Source: Chloroflexota bacterium
GTDB lineage: Bacteria > Chloroflexota > Dehalococcoidia > FW602-bin16
DNA: 64,000 bases
Assembly (NCBI GenBank): GCA_004297765.1
Contig: SCTZ01000085.1
Span: forward strand, 10,240 to 74,239
Reading direction: 5' to 3'
In this document: positions 1-11,091 of the stretch, piece by piece
How the letters are laid out: each line of letters opens with the position of its first letter
How positions within the stretch are numbered: position 1 is the first letter of the stretch
Translations under genes and position numbers: made by a program
The notes under the pieces: model-generated
Told to the model about the DNA's origin: nothing
Seen by the model: only the letters and a program-made list of their open reading frames with translations
Databases searched by the model: none

Positions 1-161
1 TCACGAGCAGGCACAGTATAGCGACTGGGCTGTCAACAGCTGGTTGATGGACCGTTACGAAAGGGTTGAGATGAACGAACCCGGCGGCAGGACGGGGTGA
101 GACCGGCCGCTGCCGGTCTCCACCCCGGCCCGTCCTGGCGCGTCTACGGGTCGGCCTACAT

Positions 162-338
162 CTACGAGACGTATATGCTGATGCACCCGAAGTTCGCATC
201 GGTCGAGCAGTTCGGATCGGCATTGATAACCAGCTTGCCATTGACCAGGTCAAAGTCCTTCTTCGTGCCAGCCCCGCCGAGGGTCAACTGGTCGATCCGC
301 CCATACTCGATCAACTCTGGACTCTTGTACTTGTTCAC
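162..338 (-). CDS. lasso peptide precursor, copy A1 (58 aa; too short for the ORF track)
   Basis: Hand translation of the minus strand gives (M)NKYKSPELIEYGRIDQLTL/GGAGTKKDFDLVNGKLVINADPNCSTDANFGCISIYVS, ending at TAG 164-162. A GGAGG RBS lies 7-10 nt upstream of a TTG-GTG start pair, with an in-frame TGA just upstream. The leader fits the lasso motif YxxPxLx3Gx5Tx and is followed by a Gly1 core. It is a paralog of 2480-2656. Confidence 0.7.
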   Translation of the reverse strand: MNKYKSPELIEYGRIDQLTLGGAGTKKDFDLVNGKLVINADPNCSTDANFGCISIYVS

Positions 339-580
339 CAAGAATCACCTCCTTCCCATGCGGCGTCGGCGCCTGCAGCACCGCTGCATTCTACTTCGGT
401 GCCGCAAGGACCTATGATTGTCCCGAACCGGGTCGCAACAGGGCGATGGCATGCCCGCCTCCACAATCGCGACCCGACCCGGCGCCGCGATTCCACCTCA
501 CCACACGAGACCTCTTTCACGAAGAGCGAAGCGCGATCCCGTGGACGTGGACCACCAATCAGCAAACCCAGCGATGATCC

Positions 581-2341
581 CTATGACAGGGATGAAACCA
601 GAGCATCCCCCGCTGGCCTGGCGCCGGCAAACTGCAAGTCGAACAACTCCCGGTATACTCCGCGATACGCTAACAACTCCGCGTGTGTGCCTTGCTCAAC
701 AATTCGGCCGTTCTCGATGACGAGAATGCGATCCGCCCGCTGAACTGTCGCCAGGCGATGGGCGATGACGAACGTCGTACGGTTTAGCATCAGATTGTCC
801 AAGGCCGCCTGCAGTTGGTGTTCGGAGCGCGCATCCAACGCAGAGGTCGGCTCATCGAGAATCAGAATGCGTGGATCTCGCAAGATGGCTCTTGCGATAG
901 ACAGACGCTGTTTCTGTCCCTCGGACAGATGGGTGCCTCTCTCGCCGACCAGGGTATCCAACCCATTCGGAAGGCGCTCGATGAATTCCCACGCATTGGC
1001 GGACCGGGCCGCGGCGATGATTTGGGTCTCGCTGGCGCCGTCACGGCCAAAGGCGATATTCTCACGAATCGACGTCGCGAACAGATAGGTGTCCTGAAAA
1101 ACAATGGCAATCTGACTCCGCAACCAGTCGAGTGACAGGTCACGCAAATCTGTCCCGTCGAGCAGAACGCGCCCTCTGATTGGATCATAGAAGCGCGCAA
1201 TCAGGCTAACCAATGTCGTCTTTCCGGCGCCGCTGGGTCCCACCAGCGCGATCACCTGCCCGGGCTGCCCCGTTAGGCTCACATCGGCAAGCACGGACTG
1301 ACCTGGAACGTGCTCGAAACTGACATCATCGAAGGCGATGCATCCCCTGATGTTGCTCGGAACCCTGGCCTCAACGCGTTCCTGAACCTGGGGCTTTTGA
1401 TCCAGAAACTCGTAGACCCGGTCTGCCGCTCCGAGCGCCTTTTGCACGCCGCTGACCAGTCTCAAAAGCTGGCCGGCCGGTTGAAACACATACCCGAAGA
1501 GTGAGTTCATCGCGACCAGAGTTCCCACCGTGGCATCGCCCTGCATCACCAGATAGCCACCATAGCCCAGAATCACCAGTGTCACCGCCAGCGAGAACAG
1601 CGACTGGCCAGACTGAATAGCGGTGTCGATCATGACAACGCGCATACGCAGCCTCAACAGCTCACCCAAGGTAGTAAGGAAGCGGATTCGCTGTGCGTGT
1701 TCCTGCCCAAACGCGACGATCTCACGAATACCGGCCAGGTTCTCCTGAATACGCTCGGTTAGCTCTGCGGCCTTTTCCTGTGCTCTCCGTGTTGCCGGAC
1801 GCAGCGGTCGCGTTACCACGGCTGCAGCCACCGACACCAGAGGCGGGGCGACCCCGGCGATGATCGCCAGTTGCGGGCTCAACACGAACATGAGCGCCGC
1901 TCCGAGCAGCAGCGTCGTGATACTCCCCAGCGCCCCAGCGACTGTCGAGCTGAAGAGGTTCGTCAGACTCGGCACGTCATTAGCAAACAGAGACAGGGTT
2001 CGTCCACTATGCTCGCGACGCGAGAACGCCAGCGACAGGGTTTCGCAGTGAGCGAAGACGCGGTGGCGAAAGTGCAGCGTGATCCGCTCGGTGAGATACG
2101 TAGCCAGGGTGGCACCAAAGATTTGGAAGACCGTGGCGACCAGCCAAAGCCCAACATACTGGGCCAGGGTCTCCAGCAGCAGATCTGGCTGCCTGGCCAG
2201 GATGACTTCATCTATCAGTTTCTTCTCTACGAGCGGAAGGGCCAGAACGAGCGGCGGCGTGAGCATGGCCAGCAGCAGCAACGGAACCCAAAGCTTCCAC
2301 AGGGTTCGCGAATCACCCAAAGCACGCAGGAACGTTTTCAT
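581..2341 (-). CDS. ABC transporter, fused permease/ATPase (likely lasso peptide exporter/immunity, McjD-type)
   Basis: 586-aa ORF with an N-terminal multi-TM exporter domain. Walker A GPSGAGKTT, ABC signature LSEGQKQRLSIARA, Walker B ILILDEPTS. It sits between the two precursor copies and downstream of the cyclase. Confidence 0.88.
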   Translation of the reverse strand: MKTFLRALGDSRTLWKLWVPLLLLAMLTPPLVLALPLVEKKLIDEVILARQPDLLLETLAQYVGLWLVATVFQIFGATLATYLTERITLHFRHRVFAHCETLSLAFSRREHSGRTLSLFANDVPSLTNLFSSTVAGALGSITTLLLGAALMFVLSPQLAIIAGVAPPLVSVAAAVVTRPLRPATRRAQEKAAELTERIQENLAGIREIVAFGQEHAQRIRFLTTLGELLRLRMRVVMIDTAIQSGQSLFSLAVTLVILGYGGYLVMQGDATVGTLVAMNSLFGYVFQPAGQLLRLVSGVQKALGAADRVYEFLDQKPQVQERVEARVPSNIRGCIAFDDVSFEHVPGQSVLADVSLTGQPGQVIALVGPSGAGKTTLVSLIARFYDPIRGRVLLDGTDLRDLSLDWLRSQIAIVFQDTYLFATSIRENIAFGRDGASETQIIAAARSANAWEFIERLPNGLDTLVGERGTHLSEGQKQRLSIARAILRDPRILILDEPTSALDARSEHQLQAALDNLMLNRTTFVIAHRLATVQRADRILVIENGRIVEQGTHAELLAYRGVYRELFDLQFAGARPAGDALVSSLS

Positions 2342-2479
2342 GCAAGCTCCGATCCGTCAGCTGTACTGGCAACACAACGGCACTCTTGGACCTCACTAAC
2401 CCCCGCCAGGAGAGGGTGAGGCCGACCGTGGCCGGCCCCGCCCCGGCCCAGCATGGCGCGTCTACGGGCCAGCTTGCGT

Positions 2480-2656
2480 CTACGAGATGAAAATGTTGAT
2501 GCACCCGTAGTTGGCATCGGTCGAGCAGTTCGGATCGGTATTGATGACCAGCTTGCCGTGGACCAAGTCAAAGTCTTTCTTCGTGCCAGCCCCGCCAAGA
2601 GTCAACTGGTCGATCCGCCCATACTCGATCAACTCTGGGCTCTTGTACATGTTCAC
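2480..2656 (-). CDS. lasso peptide precursor, copy A2 (58 aa)
   Basis: This is the C-terminal part of the 77-aa ORF 2480..2713. AGGAGGTGA precedes the conserved TTG-GTG start (GTG at 2656; alternative ATG at 2650). Product: (M)NMYKSPELIEYGRIDQLTL/GGAGTKKDFDLVHGKLVINTDPNCSTDANYGCINIFIS. It has the same YxxPxLx3Gx5Tx leader, Thr at -2 and Gly at core position 1. Confidence 0.75.
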   Translation of the reverse strand: MNMYKSPELIEYGRIDQLTLGGAGTKKDFDLVHGKLVINTDPNCSTDANYGCINIFIS

Positions 2657-2895
2657 CAAGGCATCACCTCCTTTCCACGCAATGTCGGCACCTTCCACAC
2701 CACTCGGCCGCACCAGCGCGCAGCAAGGACTGTCTCTGTCGTAGATCGCGTTGCGGCGAAGTCTGCGACATGTCGGACTTCCATGAGCGCACTCCGTCCA
2801 GGCGCCGCAACTCCACTTCTCTCAAAAACGGGAAGTTCTTCACGATCAGCGAAGCCCAGTCCCGTGGAGGTGGACCGTTCGAAGGCGAGCCTGTG

Positions 2896-4887
2896 TCAAC
2901 TTGCAAAGCCCGTTATTGGCGATAGAAACCCATCGCCAGCGGACGGAACCATCGTGAGCCGCGCGCGCGGGAGCAAGAGCGTGCGCAGCCAGGTTTCCAG
3001 CCCCACCATCTGCGTCACGTAGACGACGTCTACCCCGTCGTCGCCTGCGCGCACATCCAAAAGCCGCTGCCAGAACCTGTCTTGATCCACATAGCCTCTC
3101 CGCGCAATCTCTGACCGCGCCGATGGTCCGAAGACCGCCTCGTAGAGCGGCCACTGTCGCTGCACTTCGTTCACCGACGCCGAACCGAAGTGCACCTTCG
3201 ATGTACGTGTCAGGATGCTGTCGGGAACGATGCCGCGCAGGGCGCGACGCACCAGCAGTTTCGATCCGGCGTAGAACTCGTCAGAGACAGGATGCGGCGC
3301 GAATTTCTGCTCCGGCGGAATCGCGAGAAGAAACTCGTGTAGCCGTCGATCGGCGAACGGGCGCCAGATCTGTATCGGCCACGGCACCGGATGCCGGGCC
3401 ACCTCCGGGGGATACAGTAGGCGATACTCGCTCTCGCGCGAGGGGCTGGAGAAGCGTCGTTTGCACTCCAATGCCAGCCACAACTGCAGATGCCGCTGGG
3501 ACAAATCATCGCGTAACCCCCCTGGCATCCAGGGTGGCAACAGCCGCCTTCCATAACCGCCAATAACGCGACGCGTATACCCGGTCATAAGCCGCTTCTG
3601 AGCGGCCAGCGGCAGTAGAGGAGCCAGCACGTGGAACACGAGTGTCTTCCGCAGTGGCTCTTCTGATAGACTGTCATACTTCGTGAGGTGCTGCCAGAAA
3701 CTCCTCACCTGGCCGCGGCGCAGCAGGGAATCGAAGACCAGCCGCGATCCGCCGACACATGCATCGGCGACATCGCCAGTCAGGATCGCCCTCACTCGCG
3801 CCTCGGTTGCGGCGCCAAAAACGATGTTGCGCACCTCGTTGACGCCCATGTTGGGCGCTTCCATAAACCCACGTGGTTCTGGCTGTAGACGTCCACCGAG
3901 CTTTCCGCACGAGAGAAGCCGCGCCGAAAAGCCATACTTCGCCTGGATATCTGAAATCAAAGGGCGTTCGTCGCAATCCAGACCGCTAAACACGGAACTA
4001 AGGCTAATGAACCCATGATACTTGGCGGATCCGAGCCGGTAGAGTTCCTGGGCAGCACAAACGACCGAGGACGAGTCAAGCCCACCGCTCAATAGGGCGC
4101 CTACCGGACGCGAACTCCGCAGACGCGAGCGCACCACCTGGTAGAAGAGCGTCCGGTAGTGCTCAGCATACTCTTCATCATGGCGATAGCGCAGCTCCCG
4201 CGGGGGCCGCAGCTCCCAGTAGCGCCACACACGCAGCATCTCACGGTCAACGACAAGAGCATGCCCGGCCGGGAGCGCAAGGATCCCCTCGAAGAAGGTC
4301 GCGGCCTGATCCTTGTCGTTCTGAAACATATTCAGAGGAACCAGAGAGTCGCGAATGCACTCCTCATTCGGGACGATGGGCACGCTAGGATCCTGAAGCA
4401 ACTGATGGATCTCCGACGCGGCGGCAAACGATCGGCGATCTGCACGGTAAAAGAGACCGCGCTGTCCGCTCGTATCGCGGGCGCAGATCATGCGTTGCTG
4501 CCGTGGATCCCAGATCATGAAGGCAAAGTCACCGAGCAGGCGCGCGAGAGCGTCCAGCCCCCAGGCGTCGTACGCGTGCAAAATCAACTCGGCGTCACCC
4601 GACGTTGGTTCCAGCCCTGCCGAAAGCCGAGATAGCAACTCGTCGCGATTGTCCAGCCGCGCGTCCGCAATGATGGTACAACCCGACCTAGAGCTGGTAA
4701 CAGGCTGCTGCTCCAAGTCGTCTTCAGGAGTTACGGCCATCTTCGCGAAGCCAAGGACCAGCGCGCCAAAGGACTTCACGCACGTGCCATCCGGCCCGCG
4801 ATATGGAATGGCCGCCAGCATTTTCTGGACGGCACTTTCATCTGCCGGCCGCCCATCCTGATGGAACAGTACAGCAAGACCGCTCAT
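2896..4887 (-). CDS. lasso peptide cyclase (asparagine synthetase-like, McjC-type)
   Basis: Asn-synthetase B fold with PP-loop LLSGGLDSSSVV. The N-terminus MSGLAVLFHQDG is typical of lasso cyclases. ATG at 4887 overlaps the stop of the upstream kinase gene (TGATG), suggesting translational coupling. Confidence 0.9.
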   Translation of the reverse strand: MSGLAVLFHQDGRPADESAVQKMLAAIPYRGPDGTCVKSFGALVLGFAKMAVTPEDDLEQQPVTSSRSGCTIIADARLDNRDELLSRLSAGLEPTSGDAELILHAYDAWGLDALARLLGDFAFMIWDPRQQRMICARDTSGQRGLFYRADRRSFAAASEIHQLLQDPSVPIVPNEECIRDSLVPLNMFQNDKDQAATFFEGILALPAGHALVVDREMLRVWRYWELRPPRELRYRHDEEYAEHYRTLFYQVVRSRLRSSRPVGALLSGGLDSSSVVCAAQELYRLGSAKYHGFISLSSVFSGLDCDERPLISDIQAKYGFSARLLSCGKLGGRLQPEPRGFMEAPNMGVNEVRNIVFGAATEARVRAILTGDVADACVGGSRLVFDSLLRRGQVRSFWQHLTKYDSLSEEPLRKTLVFHVLAPLLPLAAQKRLMTGYTRRVIGGYGRRLLPPWMPGGLRDDLSQRHLQLWLALECKRRFSSPSRESEYRLLYPPEVARHPVPWPIQIWRPFADRRLHEFLLAIPPEQKFAPHPVSDEFYAGSKLLVRRALRGIVPDSILTRTSKVHFGSASVNEVQRQWPLYEAVFGPSARSEIARRGYVDQDRFWQRLLDVRAGDDGVDVVYVTQMVGLETWLRTLLLPRARLTMVPSAGDGFLSPITGFAS

Positions 4888-5912
4888 CAGACCTCCAGAT
4901 CCGCCAGCACCCGTGCACACACCGCGTCCTGGCTGTGGTGACCGTTAGGGAAACTGAGAACGCGTACAGGCACTCGCGATACCAGGCGCGCATAGAACAT
5001 AAAGAGTGCTGCGCTCTGGGCCGGTTGAACAAGGGAGCTCCATGACGTCTGCGCGAGCAGCGTAGTGAGGGACTCGCGCTGGCTTAATTCCTCGATCCGA
5101 ATATCATCATGCCCGCAGGACAGCGGGTCGTAGCGATCGAGCACGTATATGGCGCGCAAGCGGGCGGGCTCTGGCGCGAAGGCATACCGACCGTCCAGGG
5201 CAAACAACTTCTTGTCCACGTTCGGCATCAGCTGAGGCAATTCCTCGGCGAGATCCAGCGTATGCACCGCGGTCTCGTTCCACAGCTTCATGGCCGGCAA
5301 GGCCGGGCCCCCATAGACGCCATCCTCGCGCATAAGCAGGGGCAGGGCATCATCAGTCAACAGCGCTGCCCCGCGACGCAAAAAACTCGCCGCCATGGTG
5401 GATTTGCCTTGACCGTGCGTTCCCAGAAAGGCGACCGCACCCTGCCCGGTCACAACGGCACTCGCGTGCAAGCAAGGGTACCCTAGCTCGCGGAGGACAA
5501 GGATTGAGATCTGGCCAGCGAGCATCAATCCCAGGGTGCGCTCGTTGCCCGACGGTTCTGGATACACGTCCACGTGCCGAGCTCCGGGATGGATGTGGCA
5601 TGTGGCGAGGGAGGGATGACGAATCCAGGTCCCCGTCGGACCAGCGTGCATGACGCAGATGATGTTGCCATGCTGACAGCGCACCTCAGCGACGAGCGGC
5701 TCATCTAGTTGAGCCGGGACTGACGCTGTTTCCATTCGCCGGAAAACCCAATCAGGCGCTTTTTCTTCTGATAAGATGAGCGGCGAGGTGGGCAGACGGA
5801 AATCACTCCGGACAGTCATTCCATACACGGAGTACCAAACTGGCTCCGCCTGTCCACAGATCGCTTCTCCCCGCTCTCGATCGTCACAAGTAGCACATGC
5901 ACTTACTGCCAC
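4887..5912 (-). CDS. HPr kinase/phosphorylase-like serine kinase associated with lasso clusters
   Basis: 341-aa ORF with P-loop FLGTHGQGKSTMAASFLRRGAALLTDD, resembling the HprK C-terminal domain. It lies between the B2 protease and the cyclase, as in kinase-containing (paeninodin-type) lasso clusters. The exact start is uncertain. Confidence 0.72.
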   Translation of the reverse strand: MAVSACATCDDRERGEAICGQAEPVWYSVYGMTVRSDFRLPTSPLILSEEKAPDWVFRRMETASVPAQLDEPLVAEVRCQHGNIICVMHAGPTGTWIRHPSLATCHIHPGARHVDVYPEPSGNERTLGLMLAGQISILVLRELGYPCLHASAVVTGQGAVAFLGTHGQGKSTMAASFLRRGAALLTDDALPLLMREDGVYGGPALPAMKLWNETAVHTLDLAEELPQLMPNVDKKLFALDGRYAFAPEPARLRAIYVLDRYDPLSCGHDDIRIEELSQRESLTTLLAQTSWSSLVQPAQSAALFMFYARLVSRVPVRVLSFPNGHHSQDAVCARVLADLEV

Positions 5913-6439
5913 TACTGCCTCTCCCTCGGAGCCGCATCGGACGACGCACGTGGTCGATGGGCGCCAACGTGTAAGATCGGGGCCGGGCGCTTCTTTCCGG
6001 GGTCGTTGCCGAGCGGCGTGAAGGGCGCCACTGATGCAGCCTCCTCATGCACGACGTATCCCGCCAACTCCACCCAGGCGTGGGCGGCCAACGCCCCGTG
6101 TTCTTTTCTCACCCCGATACGCAGTTCACTGGGAAGTCCTTCGCTAAGAAGCCAGTGGTGTAGACCAAGTGAGCGATGCAGGCACTGGGCACGGATGAAG
6201 TGGTGATGTGATGCGGACTCGATCACTCGCGCATACCGTCGTGCACGCCGATAATCGTCTTTGCTCACGCTGCATCTCTCCGGGTCCGCGATCGGCCGCG
6301 CTTTCTCCAGCACACGCTGGTAGCCGAGGAGCTTCAGCCCAACGTCGATAACAACGAGATGCGCGAACGCACGGAGGTACAGCCATCGATCGGAGTTTGA
6401 CAGCGCCGCGTATCGTCTGAACATTGAAAGCACGCGCAT
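5912..6439 (-). CDS. lasso peptide leader protease B2 (transglutaminase-like Cys protease)
   Basis: Motifs ...RAQCLHRSLGLHHWLLSEGLPSELRIGV...AAHAWVELAG match the Cys/His core of lasso B2 proteins. Start taken at MRVLSMFRRY (6439). Confidence 0.85.
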   Translation of the reverse strand: MRVLSMFRRYAALSNSDRWLYLRAFAHLVVIDVGLKLLGYQRVLEKARPIADPERCSVSKDDYRRARRYARVIESASHHHFIRAQCLHRSLGLHHWLLSEGLPSELRIGVRKEHGALAAHAWVELAGYVVHEEAASVAPFTPLGNDPGKKRPAPILHVGAHRPRASSDAAPRERQ

Positions 6440-6461
6440 TATGCCCCGCCTCTGTGGAGCC

Positions 6462-6743
6462 TCACTCGTCCGAGATCCGCACCAGACCCTTCGCACTCAG
6501 TTGACCGATGAGCTGAAAGAGATCTCGTCGCAGACGATCGGGCTCCACGTCATACTCGGTGAGGAGCTGGCTGGTGATCTCGGATTCGGTCGCACCCTGA
6601 ATAAGAAGCCGCCAGATCCGGGTCCCCACGTCATCCAATCCGTAGTAGATGCCGGTCTTGACGTTCAACAGAATCGCTTCGTCGTCCAGGTTGGCCCAGG
6701 TGACCGATTCATCGATCACTATTCTCCGCTGGAGTGTGGACAT
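6462..6743 (-). CDS. PqqD-family RiPP recognition element (lasso B1)
   Basis: MSTLQRRIVIDESVTWANLDDEAILLNVKTGIYYGLDDVGTRIWRLL...LSAKGLV is a typical PqqD/RRE sequence. GAGGAGG RBS lies upstream of the ATG at 6743. Confidence 0.85.
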   Translation of the reverse strand: MSTLQRRIVIDESVTWANLDDEAILLNVKTGIYYGLDDVGTRIWRLLIQGATESEITSQLLTEYDVEPDRLRRDLFQLIGQLSAKGLVRISDE

Positions 6744-10460: not shown

Positions 10461-10844
10461 ATGAAGTCACCGGCTGCTCGTCCTGTCGGGCTAACGATCA
10501 TCGCTGTTGTGATAGCCATCAACGGCATCGGCTCCCTGCTAGAGGCGGTCGGTCTCGCAGGGCTGACGATCGGCGCGATTATCAGCACCATCCTGTCGGC
10601 GCTGATCGGACTGGCTTTGCTCTTTCGAGCTTACGGAATCCTGCGGCTCAAACACCGTGCCTGGTTGGCCACGGTGCTTCTCCTTTGCGTACGTAGCGTC
10701 TTCGCCACAGTCAACTTGGTCTACGGTTCGGCCGGCATCGTTGGCACGATCGACGTAGTCGTAAGCCTACTTACTCTTCTGTATCTAATCCGCCCCAGCG
10801 TGCGAAGTCTGTTCGAAGAGAATTCAGCTCGCAAGCACCCATGA
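10461..10844 (+). CDS. small integral membrane protein, unknown function
   Basis: 127-aa ORF with 3-4 hydrophobic helices (GLTIIAVVIAINGIG..., IISTILSALIGLALLF...). No recognisable family. Confidence 0.5.
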   Translation: MKSPAARPVGLTIIAVVIAINGIGSLLEAVGLAGLTIGAIISTILSALIGLALLFRAYGILRLKHRAWLATVLLLCVRSVFATVNLVYGSAGIVGTIDVVVSLLTLLYLIRPSVRSLFEENSARKHP

Positions 10845-11091
10845 CCCCCAGCAAGCTGCAACCAAGGCTCAACGCGCGGATATGAAGGCAAAGTACCCCT
10901 GCTGTCCGGTCTCTGGCACACAGCTTGCGGCCATCCTAGCAAGCAGTACGCTCTGTGGCTCGCCCGACGGTTAGCTACCCGGCCGAAGATGAAGAACAGA
11001 TCCAGCGCGCCGATCTCGGGTCGGACAGGCCATAGTTAATGGCGCCGATGCTGTTGCGCCAATCGTGTACGATAAGAGGAGGGCATCCAAT

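Follow-up and report, generated by a model that had tools for sequence, protein, structure and literature searches.

The 64,000-nucleotide stretch of Chloroflexota DNA analyzed here (contig SCTZ01000085.1, positions 10,240–74,239; hereafter the window) carries a lasso-peptide gene cluster, in which the ORF at 4887–5912 is, judged from its sequence, an intact HprK-like P-loop peptide kinase. The best explanation of our data is a competent HprK-like RiPP kinase, co-translated with the leader peptidase B2 and the cyclase C, that phosphorylates the precursors A1 and A2, most likely at their C-terminal Ser; we give this reading a probability of about 0.5. By analogy, both precursors are probably substrates. 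The final Ser is a likely but not a settled target, because the kinase belongs to an unstudied branch of its family.

The lasso-peptide locus and the kinase gene

The genes of the locus follow the order B1-B2-K-C-A1-D-A2. The features are as follows:

6462–6743, minus strand: B1, PqqD-like RiPP recognition element (Pfam/NCBIfam PqqD match)
5912–6496, minus strand: B2, transglutaminase-like leader peptidase (Transglut_core3 / NF033537)
4887–5912, minus strand: K, predicted HprK-like RiPP precursor kinase, ORF of 341 aa
5349–5468, minus strand: kinase catalytic core HASAVVTGQGAVAFLGTHGQGKSTMAASFLRRGAALLTDD, with H149, Walker A G164–S171 and metal-binding D187-D188
2896–4888, minus strand: C, lasso cyclase (Asn_synthase / NF033535)
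2480–2656, minus strand: precursor A1 (ORF), terminal Ser codon TCG at 2483–2485
581–2341, minus strand: D, ABC exporter (Pfam/NCBIfam matches)
162–341, minus strand: precursor A2 (ORF), terminal Ser codon TCG at 165–167

The location of the kinase between B2 and C, given in the preliminary description, was confirmed: the frame is open over 341 aa and overlaps both neighbors. Its GTG start overlaps the stop of B2 (TAGTG; the B2 TAG occupies 5912–5914) and is preceded by a Shine-Dalgarno-like run, GGGAGAGG; its TGA stop shares bases with the ATG at which the cyclase starts (TGATG). The kinase is translationally coupled to both B2 and C. The cyclase likely starts at the ATG at 4886–4888; in the longer cyclase ORF, residue 12 is the first that the NF033535 alignment covers. 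The database gene call for the kinase (P0001, 282 aa) is too short. Since kinase homologs conserve residues upstream of the 282-aa start (Y27, G31, S36, L40, and P41), the longer coordinates are to be preferred; the exact start, between 5912 and about 5843, is uncertain.

The association of such kinases with lasso-peptide genes is constant. Homologs from Chloroflexota, Cyanobacteriota, Actinomycetota, Acidobacteriota, Planctomycetota, and other phyla adjoin B1/B2/C/D genes at most of those loci whose sequence reaches past the kinase. The clade of the window kinase was present in about 6% of the sampled Chloroflexota genomes.

Fold, catalytic residues and phylogenetic position of the kinase

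The protein consists of a beta-rich N-terminal domain (about residues 25–120) and a P-loop catalytic domain. The catalytic core was delimited from the ORF translation and from motif equivalence with BsfK, PadeK, ThcoK, SyanK, and PsmK. The Walker A motif reads G164-T-H-G167-Q-G169-K170-S171, with H149 upstream and D187-D188 downstream. In an alignment of 47 sequences, H149, G164, G169, K170, D187, D188, K234, and R260 were invariant, and the catalytic residues were kept in 137/137 wider homologs, regardless of the last residue of the precursor. The eight residues whose importance mutagenesis has established (H, G, G, G, K, S, D, D) are present with spacing identical to that in BsfK. The alignment was also inspected for a missing P-loop or missing catalytic residues, the loss that was to speak against phosphorylation of the precursors at the C-terminal Ser, and H149, G164/G167/G169, K170, S171, D187, and D188 were all intact. 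According to three reports (PMC9266682, PMC8498205, PMC6993621), lasso-peptide kinases modify the C-terminal Ser of the linear precursor, and the H-K-D-D residues are essential in them.

Family models recognized the protein poorly. The scores were 16.1 bits with Pfam PF07475 (Hpr_kinase_C; cut-off 33.3) and 24.8 bits with NCBIfam TIGR04352 (HprK_rel_A; cut-off 200). Lasso kinases of other clades also fell below the TIGR04352 cut-off, and none of the NCBIfam models captures any lasso kinase clade. Many of the kinase homologs bear a precomputed PF27840 annotation. The AlphaFold (AF2) model was of high confidence (pLDDT 92, pTM 0.89), and Foldseek matched it to PEPCK (E = 6e-8) and to HprK/P (1KKL/3TQF/1JB1; E = 1e-5 to 1e-4, TM normalized by target 0.56–0.60). 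A profile search against PDB sequences also retrieved HprK/P (3TQF) with the H...GKS...DD register preserved. The kinase-like nature of the protein, weak by family models, is firm from the motif, the AlphaFold model, and the fold matches. HprK/P and the ATP-dependent PEP carboxykinase have the P-loop fold and the catalytic His/Lys/Asp-Asp in common with the window kinase. The N-terminal domain is a different one, the window kinase has no HPr context, and its predicted substrate is a RiPP precursor.

Scores under curated thresholds and best fold matches to PEPCK, a small-molecule kinase, would also suit a protein that phosphorylates no peptide, whether a kinase acting on some other kind of substrate or a nucleotide-binding scaffold or assembly factor that serves B2/C. 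We consider this highly improbable: the residues vital by mutagenesis in BsfK and in paeninodin-type kinases are conserved here, all eight with the same spacing, every characterized HprK-like protein of RiPP clusters is a precursor kinase, and the matches to PEPCK stem from the fold common to the superfamily and from a longer alignment.

The window kinase was placed in a separate Chloroflexota clade (support 99), which includes both kinases of the Tbi cluster of Thermobaculum terrenum. The segments of PadeK, ThcoK, BaceK, PapoK, PsmK, and SyanK best matched a clade of Cyanobacteriota, Bacillota, and Acidobacteriota kinases, and the window kinase ranked only about 99–113 of 137 against these characterized C-terminal-Ser kinases, as compared over segments of about 80 aa. 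These references are partial sequences (about 80 aa) from Supplementary Fig. S10 of PMC10368454; full-length BsfK was taken from the methods of the same paper. A kinase from a Clostridia MAG, used as a query aimed at the named Bacillota kinases, retrieved only relatives that were unnamed, cyanobacterial, or from Acidobacteriota. The family label "paeninodin-type," applied to this kinase initially, was therefore abandoned, since the proven C-terminal-Ser kinases fall in a different clade.

Precursor C-termini and the predicted phosphate acceptor

A1 and A2 have a leader in common, which ends in A1 as ...YKSPELIEYGRIDQLTL and contains the YxxPxL motif as YKSPEL, with T(−2)L(−1) before the core. 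The core comprises 38 aa with two Cys, GGAGTKKD...GCINIFIS in A1 and GGAGTKKD...GCISIYVS in A2. Both precursors do end in Ser (...IFIS and ...IYVS) while nearby tail residues diverge, four of the last ten being different (Y/F, N/S, F/Y, I/V). This pattern had been taken as a sign of selection for a modification site. Two paralogs alone do not carry it beyond chance, and we rejected the argument: A1 and A2 arose by a recent duplication, are 91% identical at the nucleotide level, and close alike with TCG for Ser followed by TAG, so the shared Ser is uninformative on selection. Of their 59 codons 44 are identical, with 7 nonsynonymous and 8 synonymous differences. Thr5, Ser24, and Thr25 are also the same in both.

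More informative numbers came from the precursors of related clusters. A protein-database search with the precursor as query gave no matches, small ORFs not being called in that database; the related precursors were instead found by translating the fetched loci in six frames and scanning them with a leader HMM. Among 23 distinct precursors of the window clade, 11 (48%) ended in Ser and none in Thr, and S/T occupied the last or second-last position in 19. Both the terminal Ser, relative to a Ser content of about 10%, and S/T at −1 or −2 were enriched over the 23 precursors (permutation p = 5e-5 each). After removal of the window's own two peptides, the values were p = 2e-4 for terminal Ser and 5e-5 for S/T at −1/−2. 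Because of these counts, we favor an acceptor at the C-terminus, at roughly even odds. Outside the clade, 63/103 distinct associated precursors ended in Ser (background 10%); this set includes SyanA (...GELTFS).

Terminal Ser is not a conserved feature within the window clade, where the remaining 12 precursors have G, F, P, A, H, L, R, or V as their last residue. Precursors were assigned to 98 of the 137 kinases, 39 being without one, and all 137 keep H-K-D-D. The rule that presence of the kinase means a Ser-ending precursor was rejected, as 35/98 kinases pair only with non-Ser precursors. Kinases with Ser-ending and non-Ser-ending partners are intermixed on the tree; for example, the kinase of locus L065 (...SGGR) is sister to that of L004 (...FNIS) with support 95.

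Another hydroxyl may serve as the acceptor, the terminal Ser being incidental. Thr5 of the macrolactam ring, which comes closest to the site used by BsfK and LppK, is one candidate, and Ser24/Thr25 just after the first Cys are others; all three residues are invariant between A1 and A2. Both of these HprK-like kinases target core Ser3 with strict regioselectivity, and BsfK is as near to the window kinase as any characterized kinase (rank 9/137 with full-length BsfK; 35% identity). More than half of the clade precursors lack a terminal Ser, with their kinases still intact. S/T was found at ring positions 2–5 in 18/21 clade cores, an enrichment confounded by the fact that ring positions of lasso peptides are generally rich in Gly, Ser, and Thr. 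The remaining three cores have none there, and no ring or internal position bears S/T in all clade cores. A Ser3 site like that of BsfK and LppK was rejected for this locus: core positions 1–5 are G-G-A-G-T, with Ala at position 3 in both precursors, and a Ser3-type site is unavailable because the core has no Ser/Thr at positions 2–3. An internal acceptor also leaves unexplained the Ser-only enrichment at the last residue and the S/T enrichment at the second-last. Overall, we regard such a site as possible but rather unlikely.

[quoted passage not shown] The intact motif and the enrichment of hydroxyl residues at the extreme C-terminus within the clade favor it. The paralog argument and the paeninodin-type affiliation no longer do, and the 12/23 clade precursors without a final Ser, together with the Ser3 specificity of BsfK and LppK, weigh against it.

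By analogy with all characterized members of the HprK-like RiPP kinase family, the kinase would phosphorylate linear, leader-bearing A1 and A2 with Mg2+ and with ATP or a different NTP. The B1 recognition element would hold the YxxPxL leader and likely present it to both the kinase and B2. Phosphorylation would precede leader removal by B2 and closure of the G1-D8 ring by C. The acceptor would be the last core residue, Ser38 (Ser58 in A1, Ser59 in A2), through its side-chain hydroxyl, and it possibly receives more than one phosphate.

A phosphate at or near the C-terminus could itself be an intermediate, a handle for a phospho-linked sugar as in pseudomycoidin, with the glycan enzymes encoded beside the cluster or elsewhere in the genome. 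Downstream, 147 nt from A2 and in the same orientation, begins a gene for a Bac_transf sugar-phosphate transferase of 242 aa. After it come GFO/MocA, DegT, Wzy_C, GT4, and hexapeptide-transferase genes; these neighbors resemble an ordinary cell-envelope polysaccharide locus. Many related clusters are adjoined by Bac_transf, WecG, GT4, GT41, or NTP_transf_5 genes, a co-occurrence seen in these loci alone. PsmN is known to add hexoses to phospho-Ser. The only PsmN-like NTP_transf_5 gene of the genome is absent from the cluster itself and lies with PAP2, two GT4 genes, and one rSAM/SPASM gene on a 6.3-kb contig. LPP/paeninodin-type clusters have also been noted in glycosyltransferase-rich loci. 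Sugar attachment would be an extension of C-terminal phosphorylation, not a true alternative to it, and we consider it improbable. The same low likelihood applies to a wider proposal for the whole clade, that its kinases have a relaxed C-terminal register (Ser at −1 or S/T at −2 of a short post-Cys tail) and that the phosphate is the attachment point of a sugar or sugar-phosphate for flanking glycan enzymes; the products would then be phosphoglycosylated, disulfide-containing long lasso peptides.

Bac_transf, NTP_transf_5, and GT4 enzymes were repeatedly observed to flank clusters of the clade.

Related systems and implications

The kinase, B1, and the precursor are all closest to proteins of the Tbi ("therbactin") cluster of T. 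terrenum ATCC BAA-798 (TbiA-alpha/beta, TbiB1, TbiB2; TbiB1 structures 5V1U/5V1V). Identity to the window kinase is 42% for one Tbi kinase and 38% for the other, and TbiB1 (5V1U) is the best solved-structure match of the window B1 (E = 1e-15). The local order B1-B2-K-C-A is the same, and the precursors are homologous, with a YxxPxL leader, a G1-D8 ring, and a core of 37–44 aa with at least two Cys, the last of which is followed by a short tail. In contrast to the window, Tbi has two tandem K-C modules, and its precursors do not end in Ser (TbiA-alpha ...ACVRF, TbiA-beta ...CLTGSV), although their kinases keep all catalytic residues. The accessible parts of the Tbi literature deal with leader recognition and cleavage only, and no report of phosphorylation was found there; therbactin was not among the known phosphorylated lasso peptides as of 2023 (PMC10368454).

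PadeK, ThcoK, BaceK, PapoK, PsmK, and SyanK are, like the window kinase, HprK-like P-loop kinases of split-B lasso clusters. In these paeninodin/SyanK-type systems, the H...GxxGxGKS...DD motif is identical to that of the window kinase, the precursors end in Ser as here, and the kinases act on the linear precursor, as expected for the window kinase. The differences lie in the kinase clade, in gene order (C-A-K-B1-B2-D or A-B1-B2-C-K-D (PMC5067487) vs. B1-B2-K-C-A-D-A), in the core (about 20–27 aa without Cys vs. 38 aa with two Cys), and in the terminal Ser, which is near-universal there vs. 48% in the window clade.

BsfK of Bradymonas sediminis (PMC10368454), also from a split-B lasso cluster, is 35% identical to the window kinase over 171 aa, and its residues H148-G163-G166-G168-K169-S170-D186-D187 correspond to the window motif with an offset of one residue. 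Its activity is stimulated by the B1 RRE BsfB1 (PMC10368454). BsfK phosphorylates ring Ser3, and in its precursor BsfA the last residue is Asp and leader position −2 is Ile, whereas the window precursors have Thr at −2 and Ala at core position 3. LppK of the linear polyphosphorylated peptides of Bacillota (PMC13381572) likewise combines an HprK-like kinase with a discrete RRE, in a system without cyclase or B2; it polyphosphorylates a single Ser, core Ser3, of the leader-bearing precursor (PMC13381572).

The presence of an HprK-like kinase in a lasso cluster is insufficient by itself to infer phosphorylation of a C-terminal Ser. Phosphorylated lasso peptides are known from few systems only, in Bacillota and Proteobacteria, and the appeal of lasso kinases is that they modify peptides under guidance of a leader and with tolerance for sequence. 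The locus represents a third clade of lasso kinases, which includes the structurally studied Tbi system of T. terrenum. Where the kinases of this clade place the phosphate would show how site choice evolved in this enzyme family, and would establish the true structure of the long lasso peptides with two Cys, therbactin among them.

Cluster organization and identity of the kinase

A complete split-B lasso-peptide cluster was found on the minus strand of the window (162–6743). Its genes, in the order of transcription, are:

6462–6743, minus: B1, PqqD RiPP recognition element (domain match)
5912–6496, minus: B2, transglutaminase-like peptidase (domain match)
4887–5912, minus: kinase, 341 aa (open reading frame)
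2896–4888, minus: C, Asn-synthetase-like cyclase (domain match)
2480–2656, minus: precursor A1
581–2341, minus: D, ABC exporter (domain match)
162–341, minus: precursor A2

The kinase ORF is translationally coupled to both B2 and C. Its GTG start, preceded by a GGGAGAGG run, shares one base with the B2 stop (TAGTG), and its TGA stop overlaps the ATG of C (TGATG). The public gene call (P0001) is only 282 aa long: its start is placed some 59 codons too far downstream, and it lacks the conserved N-terminal segment Y27...P41. The long form is right because Y27, G31, S36, L40, and P41, all upstream of the public start, are kept in the aligned homologs and residues 25–120 form a confident beta-rich N-terminal domain in the AF2 model. 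The exact start is uncertain since residues 1–19 are unconserved and disordered. A perfect 9-bp GC-rich hairpin (GAGACCGGC-AGCG-GCCGGTCTC) lies 3' of the A2 stop (99–120, minus), and a similar GC-rich stem was observed 3' of A1, near 2420–2445. These hairpins may be attenuators or stabilisers fixing the precursor:enzyme ratio.

Family models scored the protein below their thresholds (Pfam Hpr_kinase_C, 16 bits with a cut-off of 33.3; TIGR04352, 24.8 bits with a cut-off of 200). Its kinase nature is nevertheless firm from the motif, the alignment, and the AF2 fold. An alignment of 47 homologs (36–66% identity) contained ten invariant columns, including H149, G164, G169, K170, D187, and D188. 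The catalytic stretch (5349–5468, translated) reads HASAVVTGQGAVAFLGTHGQGKSTMAASFLRRGAALLTDD, and its H-G-G-G-K-S-D-D motif has spacing identical to that of BsfK, a kinase of core Ser3, in which H148-G163-G166-G168-K169-S170-D186-D187 was validated by mutagenesis (Duan et al., PMC10368454). The same study found this motif common to the C-terminal-Ser kinases PadeK, ThcoK, BaceK, PapoK, SyanK, and PsmK. The residues also agree with the catalytic 'His-Lys-Asp-Asp' that a review (PMC9266682) cites from Zhu et al.; the D158A/D159A variant of PsmK had no activity (PMC6993621). The AF2 model (pLDDT 92, pTM 0.89) matched ATP-dependent PEP carboxykinases and HprK/P catalytic domains, and a profile search of PDB sequences returned the same families. 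The P-loop and catalytic residues are thus intact, which leaves standing, on this point, the proposal of the preliminary description that the protein phosphorylates the C-terminal Ser of both precursors in the paeninodin manner. We consider it an active precursor kinase acting, with B1, on the leader-bearing peptide (probability about 0.8); a non-kinase or non-peptide role takes the remainder and is improbable.

Related loci and precursor C-termini

Loci with kinase relatives (144) were fetched from genomes and metagenomes, and more contigs were added later. Unannotated precursors were recovered by a leader HMM (Y/W-x-x-P-x5-G-x5-T-x) over six-frame translations. Homologs of B1, B2, C, and D adjoin the kinase in most loci where the contig is long enough, and this set occurs in Chloroflexota, Cyanobacteriota, Actinomycetota, Acidobacteriota, Planctomycetota, Rhodothermota, Bacillota, and Alphaproteobacteria. 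In seven Acidimicrobiia loci (L129, L034, L040, L043, L055, L030, L132), the kinase-bearing frames are 845–1071 aa long, a length pointing to a fused extra domain or to long upstream read-through before the true start.

The tree of 137 kinases comprised three main groups. One (Cyanobacteriota, Bacillota, Acidobacteriota, and others) holds the ...TFS precursors, SyanA (...GELTFS) among them, and the best matches of the PadeK, ThcoK, BaceK, PapoK, PsmK, and SyanK catalytic segments. In the Acidimicrobiia group, nearly all precursors end in Ser (...GTS, ...GTVS). The window kinase belongs to the remaining, essentially Chloroflexota group (33 sequences, support 99) and ranks only 99th–113th of 137 against each characterised C-terminal-Ser kinase. 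Some cyanobacterial SyanA-like precursors carry an extra tail (...LTFSGTF, ...LTFSETPMRG; L028/L126, 8748–9326, and L033/L122, around 10654–10888), placing the usually terminal Ser internally. In one Chloroflexota genome (L165, G331:C62, 7231–10081), the kinase belongs to the SyanK-like group, but its partner precursor (...GLICS) is of the Chloroflexota type, long and with two Cys; this genome also carries a cluster of the window clade (L166, ...CASTSG).

A locus of Thermobaculum terrenum (L164) falls within the window clade and encodes two precursors that match TbiA-alpha and TbiA-beta of 'therbactin' in every residue (sequences from the supplement of PMC10368454). Identity to the window kinase is 42% and 38% for the two Tbi kinases, and TbiB1 (5V1U/5V1V) is the best solved relative of the window B1. 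The Tbi precursors end in ...ACVRF and ...CLTGSV, whereas those of the window end in Ser. Both this locus (G287:C2, 8300–17300) and L003 contain tandem kinase-cyclase modules, with two kinases, two cyclases, a single B1/B2 pair, and two different precursors.

Among 23 distinct window-clade precursors, 11 end in Ser, none in Thr, and 12 in G, F, P, A, H, L, R, or V. H-K-D-D is present in all 137 kinases whatever the precursor ending, and Ser-ended and other partners are mixed on the window-clade part of the tree; therefore, a terminal Ser is not required for an intact kinase in this clade. At least 11 cores (11 of the first 21) have Ser or Thr as the penultimate residue, and 19 of the 23 have it at one of the last two positions. 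Tail-shuffling permutation gave p = 5e-5 both for last Ser and for Ser/Thr in the last two positions, and 2e-4 and 5e-5, respectively, when A1 and A2 were removed; the sequences are related, and these values are indicative only. As judged from sequence, the enrichment points to modification at the extreme C-terminus, perhaps less strictly positioned than in the paeninodin group.

Candidate acceptor residues

The preliminary description had read selection for a modification site from the two paralogs. This argument carries no weight: A1 and A2 share 91% of their nucleotides, with 44 of 59 codons identical, and both end in TCG-TAG. Genes that have diverged so little would be expected to keep the same last codon, and selection on it is not inferable. 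Of 15 differing codons, 8 are synonymous and 7 nonsynonymous, and 4 of the latter, all conservative, fall within the last ten residues.

Targets of HprK-like RiPP kinases are not always C-terminal. In BsfA, whose last residue is Asp, BsfK phosphorylates Ser3 of the ring (PMC10368454), and the linear peptide substrate of LppK is polyphosphorylated at Ser3 (PMC13381572). Full-length BsfK is as close to the window kinase as any characterised enzyme (35% identity over 171 aa), A1 and A2 each contain Thr5, Ser24, and Thr25, and 18 of 21 window-clade cores have Ser or Thr at ring positions 2–5, although this frequency is confounded by rings being Gly/Ser/Thr-rich anyway. Another hydroxyl as the acceptor appears unlikely, and the terminal Ser has about an even chance at this locus. 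The exact BsfK/LppK site was ruled out, positions 2–3 of the window cores being Gly-Ala. Polyphosphorylation, seen for ThcoK, SyanK, PsmK, and LppK, would be possible by analogy.

Glycan genes and novelty of the clade

A sugar-phosphate transferase gene (Bac_transf) starts 147 nt downstream of the A2 stop on the same strand, followed by genes for a GFO/MocA oxidoreductase, a DegT aminotransferase, a 786-aa protein, an O-antigen-ligase-like Wzy_C protein, GT4, and a hexapeptide transferase (window 1–14 and the contig upstream of the window; L170, 1620–10253, minus). The 786-aa protein beside Wzy_C had no Pfam match. Bac_transf, WecG, GT4, GT41, GT87, or NTP_transf_5 (PsmN-like) genes adjoin many related clusters; Bac_transf homologs were observed at L145, L075, L164, L007, L025, L046, and L016. 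The sole NTP_transf_5 gene of the genome lies on another contig (C173, 6.3 kb; L173, 560–6205), where its neighbours encode a PAP2 phosphatase, two glycosyltransferases of family GT4, and a radical-SAM/SPASM protein; this same set also flanks the related clusters L147, L149, and L153. In pseudomycoidin, PsmN puts hexoses on phospho-Ser (PMC6993621). As a lead rather than a result, these glycan genes may act on the lasso peptide.

Neither lasso peptides bearing phosphate nor HprK-like kinases are new in themselves; our literature search found no paper tying Chloroflexota lasso clusters to phosphorylation. The new elements are the gene order B1-B2-K-C-A-D-A, previously undescribed, and a distinct Chloroflexota clade of predicted lasso-precursor kinases, which 24 of the 401 Chloroflexota genomes sampled contain. 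The precursors of this clade have long cores with two Cys (at least two in all 23, the last one 3–8 residues from the end) and a non-canonical C-terminal rule.
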